DNA of 5,142 nt from a virus (taxonomy: Duplodnaviria > Heunggongvirae > Uroviricota > Caudoviricetes). Where the stretch lies: IMG/VR virus record IMGVR_UViG_2671180669_000008. One strand, 5' to 3'. Shown here one piece after another: positions 414 through 1,027 of the stretch. The translations under genes and the position numbers were made by a program. The stretch's first letter is position 1. Each line of letters begins with the position of its first letter. Below the pieces are notes generated by a model. It had not been told where the DNA came from. It saw nothing but the letters and a program-made list of their open reading frames with translations, and searched no databases.

Positions 414-458
414 TGAATCACCTTTACCAATATTGTATGAAAAAACACGCACGACTAA

Positions 459-487
459 TTGACAATAATTTTCATTTCCATTAAAAA
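459..487 (+). promoter_or_regulatory. Candidate sigma70 promoter on the plus strand (-35 TTGACA 459-464, 17-bp spacer, -10 TAAAAA 482-487)
   Basis: Perfect -35 hexamer with an AT-rich but weak -10. Points toward the hairpin/T-tract at 523-588. Pattern only. Confidence 0.2.
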
Positions 488-522
488 AGATCGCGTAGCA
501 TTCTTAATTCATGAGGAACTTT

Positions 523-588
523 ACCCGCCAGCAATCTGAGTAGCGAAAGCTGTTCATCCCCAATGTTTTTGCTGGCGGGTCCTTTTTT
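523..588 (+). terminator. Plus-strand terminator-like structure: 12-bp perfect stem, 34-nt loop, then T6
   Basis: acccgccagcaa (523-534) pairs with ttgctggcgggt (569-580); followed by ccTTTTTTct (583-588). Antisense to the phage late transcription direction. Confidence 0.3.
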
Positions 589-979
589 CTACGGTCCTCC
601 TCCCCGGAGGGGGGCATTTCATTATTTTTCTAATCGTTACTGGTGAGAAGGCGGAAGAAAAAGCCAGTTCTTCGCCCCTAAATAACAGCATGATTCCAGT
701 CCATGCAAAATCTGATTTCCAGCTCACACATACCGAGCGCTGTACAAAAAACCGCCAGCCAAGGCAGTTAAGAGTGTGTTCCCGGGGTTTGCTTAGAATA
801 TTTTGTAAGTTGTCCGAAGAGATATTTACAACACCAGAATGATGAATCATCAGTCCCCTGCCAGAGGTTCACTACGTAACCTGACCGACAATGCACCATT
901 CTGGTGCTGAAAAAAGAGCACTGGAACTGCAACAAAACAACATCACAGAACAGGAGATGGTAAGGAGTCAGACATTCCC

Positions 980-993
980 ACACAATATTGTGT
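980..993. promoter_or_regulatory. Perfect 14-bp palindrome acacaatattgtgt
   Basis: Self-complementary 14-mer, 35 nt downstream (minus direction) of the tRNA-Gly 3' end. Possible protein-binding site or RNA hairpin; no function assigned. Confidence 0.2.
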
Positions 994-1027
994 CAGTGCA
1001 AATAACAACCTTCGTCTCAAATCTCGC

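Follow-up and report, generated by a model that had tools for sequence, protein, structure and literature searches.

A probable Fur-repressed small-RNA gene, unannotated and widely distributed, upstream of the holin gene in lambdoid prophages of Escherichia coli

What is encoded in the ∼600 bp that separate the tRNA genes from the holin gene in an E. coli lambdoid prophage? A reading of the DNA letters (hereafter the sequence-only reading) had treated this gap, positions 415-1027, as one structured element, the plus strand of which could specify either a ∼95-nt RNA, carried as cargo in the moron slot, or a convergent-transcription terminator. We have followed up this suggestion by investigating the coding potential, homology, conservation and predicted structure of the gap, and by comparing it with known RNAs and with published Fur binding data. 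The window, i.e. the whole stretch of DNA analysed, is 5,142 nt of a Caudoviricetes record (IMGVR_UViG_2671180669_000008) and corresponds to the Q-to-lysis part of a lambdoid prophage. Late genes are on the minus strand in the order helicase, RusA, Q, RNAs of the isrK/C4/Xcc1 type, ORF6N/Ant-like gene, four tRNAs, gap and holin. The features flanking the gap are as follows.

132-347, minus strand: class II (P21-type) holin, first lysis gene (Pfam Phage_holin_2_1, 1.5e-35)
1028-1338, minus strand: operon of tRNA-Gly, tRNA-Thr, tRNA-Arg and tRNA-Met/Ile(CAT), with the end of tRNA-Gly at 1028
1528-2289, minus strand: ORF6N/Ant-like gene, after the isrK/C4/sRNA-Xcc1 RNAs
2129-2212, minus strand: sRNA-Xcc1, downstream of Q
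2346-2429, minus strand: C4 antisense RNA, downstream of Q
2455-2531, minus strand: isrK, directly downstream of Q
2492-2544, minus strand: c4-a1b1 targets, downstream of Q

The isrK, C4 and Xcc1 RNAs together with the ORF6N/Ant-like gene (2129-2544 region) are a P1/P7-type C4-ant immunity module, located where pR'/tR' would be expected. The CAT-anticodon tRNA at 1262-1338 is called tRNA-Met by ARAGORN and tRNA-Ile by PGAP in an identical prophage; it is probably a lysidine tRNA of the ileZ type, such as Stx phages carry. Nine complete E. coli genomes contain the 613 bp of the gap, unannotated, at 99–100% identity, and the segment 354-1438, comprising the 613 bp and the tRNAs, is present in many E. 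coli and Shigella prophage contigs. Among phage records, a megablast search with the region returned no match and blastn returned two weak matches, both to the tRNA trailer described below; neither program detected extended similarity to Stx phages in these records. Terminator-like sites are over-represented in positions 1-1500, where eight are observed against 1.4 expected. A perfect 40-nt direct repeat (58-97 and 360-399) flanks the holin gene, and in several related prophages a segment resembling 1-97 directly abuts position 354, indicating that the holin is missing or displaced there. The repeat suggests repeat-mediated cassette exchange.

The gap does not behave as a single element. The sequence-only reading had proposed checking whether the block is conserved as a unit; comparison with other genomes detected a left part (379-728) and a right part (729-1027) which recur separately, dividing the ∼600 bp into two units at position 728. 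This right homology boundary is common to copies of the left part in strain CFT073 (aligning with 384-728), a ColV plasmid (379-728) and the prophage of contig L025 (131-728). The two units have the following features.

379-728, both strands: 350-bp mobile module, delimited by homology boundaries and carried by prophages, ExPEC islands and ColV plasmids
388-414, minus strand: late-strand intrinsic terminator, a 10-bp stem followed by U6 at 387-382, directly upstream of the holin
688-728, both strands: strongly conserved right end of the module in the variant alignment, with a weak late-strand hairpin at 688-706
750-769, minus strand: intrinsic terminator closing the trailer, a 7-pair stem followed by TTTTGT (terminator scan)
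770-1027, minus strand: structured 3' trailer of the phage tRNA operon, contiguous with tRNA-Gly, with hairpins at 825-913 (long) and at the palindrome 980-993 (small)

The most plausible reading of the right part, 729-1027, is a structured 3' trailer belonging to the phage tRNA operon, with which it is predicted to be co-transcribed. It travels with the tRNA genes in other prophage contigs and is ∼73% conserved next to tRNA-Gly in phage SerU-LTIIb. In three sequences, 90% of the cells in the proposed structure are paired, compared with 32–55% when partners are slid, a comparison to be read with the structure having been derived from the window itself; both partners differ in six pairs, and the frequency of G-U pairs points to the minus strand. 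The perfect 14-bp palindrome ACACAATATTGTGT, recovered at 980-993 by an inverted-repeat search and previously counted with the rest of the gap, belongs to this minus-strand trailer and is best read as an RNA hairpin within it, not as an operator. In layout alone, the trailer can be likened to tRNA spacers of the 3'ETS-leuZ type, which are also non-coding, contiguous with the last tRNA and on the same strand; the trailer is closed by a terminator.

The left part is a mobile module of considerable abundance. Copies of ∼85% identity are present in 1427 of the 5426 complete E. coli genomes, occupying 912 places on chromosomes and 643 on plasmids, and the carriers are lambdoid prophages, ExPEC islands and ColV plasmids, adjoining iss in the latter. 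In intact prophages the module is always immediately upstream of the holin, while its upstream neighbour varies, being tRNAs in the window, a DNA methyltransferase in contig L045 and a pertussis-like AB5 toxin pair in L025 and L030. Toxin genes are thus carried in this position by related prophages, in agreement with the earlier description of the slot as a moron/toxin site. The copies in CFT073-type islands and on ColV/IncFIB plasmids are relics, fused to an Rz fragment and lacking the holin; those on the plasmids are also joined to iss. The two relic types have one common junction, and the CFT073 copy lies 2.2 kb from papI. The late-strand hairpin and T-run which the sequence-only reading had named the holin terminator (388-414) lie upstream of the holin, not after it. 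This terminator (-17.3 kcal/mol) is identical in three variants from intact prophages and has eroded in the relics which lack the holin.

Several further observations concern the module and its surroundings. At its right end, GTCCATGCAAAATCTGATTTCCAGCTCACA (690-728) is conserved to the same degree as the RNA body described below despite lying 100 nt past the RNA terminator, and the end of this segment is the exact homology boundary in three unrelated contexts. A minus-strand promoter-like site at 649-621 was not kept in the variants and was dropped. The toxin pair of L025 and L030 is located between Q and the module, directly upstream of the latter on the late strand; its A subunit (L025 1866-3052, also in L030) is pertussis-toxin-S1-like (Pfam PF02917, 6e-14), and the ORF upstream of it encodes a signal peptide, has no Pfam match and presumably resembles the SubB/PltB B subunits. 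The intact module-bearing prophage of L045 also encodes, at 1879-2979, iss adjacent to Rz, with a TonB family protein close by, possibly another iron link in the same phage type. In the viral contig L013, all sequence preceding the 3' arm of the RNA terminator has given way to unrelated DNA, a loss by which this copy would be inactivated; the junction contains N and may represent an insertion.

The features of the module which point to a small-RNA gene are the following.

459-487, plus strand: promoter, -35 TTGACA at 459-464, 17-bp spacer, -10 TAAAAA at 482-487, from sequence and invariant in variants
461-479, both strands: Fur box GACAATAATTTTCATTTCC, 13/19 matches to consensus, best matrix fit in reverse orientation, spanning the -35 hexamer and spacer
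494-590, plus strand: candidate small RNA of ∼95 nt, from fold and conservation, with the 5' end predicted from the -10
523-588, plus strand: RNA terminator, 12-bp stem, 34-nt loop with a GAAA-capped inner hairpin, T6, from fold and inverted repeat
523-534 and 569-580, plus strand: terminator stem arms ACCCGCCAGCAA and TTGCTGGCGGGT, a perfect 12-bp inverted repeat
594-615, plus strand: second hairpin, after the terminator, not conserved, its 3' arm being lost in the L045 variant
About NC_004431.1 3440928-3441022: equivalent of the small RNA in CFT073, by homology

The sequence-only reading had already pointed to the perfect -35 hexamer and to the 12-bp inverted repeat with 34 nt between its arms and a T6 tract at 583-588; both were recovered, by inspection of the sequence and, for the repeat, also by an inverted-repeat search, and each feature named in that reading was confirmed at its position. 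By arithmetic estimate, ∼0.01 perfect 12-bp inverted repeats within 40 nt are expected per 5 kb. The predicted RNA region (490-592, 103 nt) folds at -31.6 kcal/mol compared with -21.0 ± 3.1 for shuffled sequences (z = -3.4), and none of 200 shuffles was as stable. Conservation was assessed in an alignment of five variants differing by 11–28% in the flanks. No variation among the five is seen in TTGACA, in TAAAAA, in the 17-bp spacing between them or in the 3' arm of the terminator, while the sequence between the hexamers and around the start site varies. Mean pairwise identity is 92% in the RNA body (506-590) and 90% in the promoter, compared with 72–76% in the start-site zone, second hairpin and downstream part. 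A similar pattern is observed between the ColV and CFT073 relics, in which the RNA body has four differences in 85 nt and the sequence outside the gene 65 in 465 (Fisher p = 0.019). In these relics the late-strand terminator has decayed, whereas the RNA terminator is intact in the island copy and carries one mismatch in the ColV copy. Conservation of the small-RNA gene may partly reflect recent spread.

The stem would terminate transcription of the plus strand only, since the minus strand lacks a U-run after it, and no plus-strand gene is present downstream of the RNA in any context compared. The promoter is absent from the output of a consensus promoter scan because the -10 hexamer, TAAAAA, lacks the final T. 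Covariation could not be demonstrated because the five variants are too alike, none of 26 pairs being changed on both sides, and a second viral scan yielded only near-identical variants. The modelled layout, in which a conserved, single-stranded and A/U-rich 5' part (UCUUAAUUCAUGAGGAACUUU) is followed by a strong terminator hairpin and a U6 tail, fits an enterobacterial base-pairing sRNA of the Hfq type, by analogy with which the RNA may be Hfq-dependent, although its 34-nt terminator loop is atypical for this class. Combined, the invariant promoter, conserved body and plus-only terminator appear to fit a self-contained gene for a ∼95-nt RNA, and fit a bare terminator less well. It was also observed that the tRNA-trailer terminator (752-762) and the RNA terminator stem (523-534 and 568-578) have a motif, GCTGGCGG / CCGCCAGC, in common; the 5' arm of the RNA is therefore complementary to the 3' arm of the late-strand trailer terminator.

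The Fur box overlapping the promoter was absent from the features of the sequence-only reading. It was detected with a position weight matrix built from 13 Fur motifs published for CFT073, the training sites of which score 17.1–26.8 bits. The window site scores 18.0 bits, with the next best site in the window at 11.6, and a score of 18 is reached by 0.1% of shuffled versions of the module, which is AT-rich. In the other variants the box scores 18.8–22.5 bits and matches the consensus at 14–15 of 19 positions, the CFT073 copy at 15 of 19. Fur ChIP-seq in CFT073 identified a peak of amplitude 3620 with its summit at NC_004431.1 3440893 (PMC7157518, Table S5A), which is 2 nt from the homologous Fur box at 3440895-3440913. 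Amplitudes in the same table are 3245 for chuA, 3050 for cirA, 3285 for fepA and 3485 for entS, all lower, and 3620 exceeds every other value in the portions of the table used here (PMC7157518). The peak is filed under 'c3597 transposase', occurs in no expression table of the article and is neither mentioned in its text nor interpreted (PMC7157518). c3597 is an ISL3 fragment with its 3' end facing the Fur site. Iron genes or other promoters were looked for in the neighbourhood of the peak and none were found. The small-RNA locus is missing from the published CFT073 RNA-seq tables because it is unannotated. Fur occupies the homologous promoter in vivo in the CFT073 copy, which is 85% identical to that of the window, where the box is weaker. 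From the occupancy at this homologue we infer that the RNA is repressed by Fur.

The left half is thus probably an unannotated, widely distributed, Fur-repressed small-RNA gene. More specifically, we consider it fairly likely that ∼459-590 is such a gene, read opposite to the late operon, the product of which probably acts in trans. When iron is plentiful, Fur-Fe2+ bound at 461-479 would cover the -35 hexamer and spacer and block RNA polymerase. When iron is scarce, Fur would leave and an RNA of ∼95 nt would be produced from near 494 to the 12-bp stem and U6 (523-588). The RNA would act most likely in trans, on host or island mRNAs, since its persistence in relics lacking the holin makes such a role likelier than one purely in cis; any late or read-through transcript running into the holin would nevertheless be perfectly complementary to it. 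For the linked genes holin, iss, the TonB-like gene, pltA, pltB, papI, papB and rcrA, duplexes predicted with their start regions were no better for the RNA than for its shuffled versions (z +0.05 to -1.4). On the opposite strand, the terminators of the module (388-414 and possibly 688-706) would shield the lysis genes of a lysogen from transcription of the tRNA or toxin genes upstream and would be read through by Q-modified polymerase. Read-through of terminators by Q-modified polymerase is established lambda biology.

Other explanations of the same features have to be weighed against this one. Least probable, to the point that we give it very little credence, is that the region is a decayed gene for a toxin, esterase or other moron protein, or that it specifies a small peptide, for example from the 10-codon frame beginning with the ATG at 511. 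The minus-strand ORFs 554..850 (98 aa) and 768..983 (71 aa) named in the sequence-only reading do exist, a 63-aa hypothetical protein (WP_000502162.1) is called by PGAP across the module in one genome (L045 4933-5124), and the 10-codon frame is open in all five variants. However, none of the six small ORFs of the gap, the two above included, matches Pfam or PHROGs, and tblastn with 16 proteins which occupy the slot in related phages detected nothing in the region; the gap is thus non-coding as far as testable, and homology to a decayed protein gene, the outcome that the sequence-only reading had set against an RNA gene, was looked for by these searches and not found. The 63-aa frame is broken in the window, indicating that the PGAP call is probably spurious, and in the 10-codon frame, which has no Shine-Dalgarno sequence, almost every substitution alters the amino acid. 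These frames, a 22-codon frame and the other small ORFs were rejected as not conserved or unsupported.

The locus could also contain no discrete RNA gene, the stem and T6 merely stopping antisense transcription that originates in the lysis region, at an iss/bor-type gene for instance, beside an orphan, non-regulatory Fur site. We regard this as unlikely. It would account for the imperfect -10, iss does lie on the same strand 430 bp upstream in ColV plasmids, and of the 349 CFT073 Fur ChIP peaks about half are not linked to regulated genes (PMC7157518). Yet a bare terminator would leave unexplained a perfect -35, fixed spacing and -10 which are invariant while the intervening and start-site sequences vary, as well as a Fur peak which is among the strongest in the portions of the ChIP table used here and located exactly on the -35 and spacer, and the window contains no upstream plus-strand gene needing termination. 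Similarly improbable is that the RNA acts mainly in cis, being made in low iron and pairing or colliding with late or read-through transcripts upstream of the holin, thereby tuning lysis or else the 3' end of the toxin or tRNA transcript coming from upstream, an effect which could coexist with a role in trans. The RNA is fully antisense to the late transcript, 150–240 nt upstream of the holin start, it always lies between moron and holin in intact prophages, and, with its long stem and structured loops, it looks like a classical antisense RNA. This is difficult to reconcile with retention of gene, promoter and terminator in >1400 genomes, most of which carry relics without holin or late operon, and with decay in those relics of the late-strand terminator but not of the RNA gene.

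The trans-acting, Fur-repressed RNA preferred here was compared with known RNAs and promoters. A covariance search of Rfam 15 with the region 415-1027, another check proposed by the sequence-only reading, gave no match at E<=1, including to RyhB (RF00057) and Esr41 (RF02676), and a full-text literature search returned no description of the RNA sequence or of a matching Fur-regulated prophage sRNA, although literature outside that search may hold one. The closest counterparts by position are PasA and PasC (EcOnc51/52), prophage sRNAs of EPEC and EHEC, of which PasA of EPEC E2348/69 is a validated Hfq-dependent sRNA. Like the candidate RNA, the Pas RNAs are found in lambdoid prophages of pathogenic E. 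coli, and PasA lies between a moron (a sialate esterase in EPEC) and a class II holin, opposite to the late genes, the E2348/69 holin being 79% identical to that of the window. The order of parts is also the same, with a late-strand terminator hairpin by the holin, a TTGACA promoter, the sRNA and an intrinsic terminator. In contrast, PasA and PasC scored 15 and 14 when aligned with the candidate RNA, shuffles averaging 13.7 and 13.8, while PasA against PasC gave 62 against 13, and a covariance model of the candidate detected nothing in the PasA, PasB and PasC loci of E2348/69. Identity with PasA, PasB or PasC was rejected accordingly, neither alignment nor covariance model indicating homology despite the same slot. 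The Pas genes are also almost never on plasmids (12 of 4600 matches), compared with 643 plasmid places for the module, and are without a reported Fur box, whereas the candidate promoter has one. PasA is a positional analogue of the candidate RNA, not a member of the same family. The position of PasA, together with the conserved promoter and body and Fur at the CFT073 homologue, favours that part of the sequence-only reading which predicted a ∼95-nt plus-strand RNA as moron-slot cargo; the convergent terminator offered as its alternative appears less likely.

With RyhB the candidate gene has in common a Fur box over the promoter, a short RNA and an intrinsic terminator with a U-tail, and Fur occupancy in vivo is observed at the candidate's homologue. 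It differs in lacking sequence homology and in being accessory, mobile and phage-borne, whereas RyhB belongs to the core genome. Esr41 (EcOnc14), an island-encoded sRNA of pathogenic E. coli which controls iron uptake genes, was suspected for this iron link and rejected, its expression-primer sequence being unrelated and Rfam negative; it lies in SpLE1 next to iha, the candidate in a lambdoid lysis region. PapR is likewise an island-encoded ExPEC sRNA, and the CFT073 module is near papI, but PapR is Lrp-activated and neither of its ends, as given by the cloning primers (CGGGCTGAAGTCC... and ...TCTCCCAGCGCGGGCTTTTTTT), occurs in the module, so that it too was rejected. In Stx1 phages, the Fur-controlled, iron-regulated Stx1 promoter lies between Q or the tRNAs and the holin and drives the toxin operon in the late direction. 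The candidate promoter occupies the same slot but faces the opposite way and would drive only a short RNA.

For extraintestinal E. coli, the main signal received from the host is a lack of iron, and the regulatory core of the response has been taken to consist entirely of Fur and RyhB. We propose, tentatively and with somewhat less than even confidence, that a mobile Fur-repressed RNA is an accessory counterpart of RyhB located in the lambdoid toxin/moron slot and retained by ExPEC islands and ColV plasmids once the phage had decayed, that it is the real target of the very strong CFT073 Fur site and that it couples starvation for iron in the host to functions in virulence or of the phage. Should the RNA be produced, a second, mobile, Fur-controlled riboregulator which is in no annotation would be present in about a quarter of sequenced E. 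coli, the carriers including CFT073-type uropathogens and ColV-plasmid strains from poultry and humans. If the proposal is true, an orphan Fur ChIP peak of CFT073, top-ranked in the portions of the table used here, would be explained, and an iron-sensing member would join the sRNAs which lambdoid phages keep beside their toxin and lysis genes.
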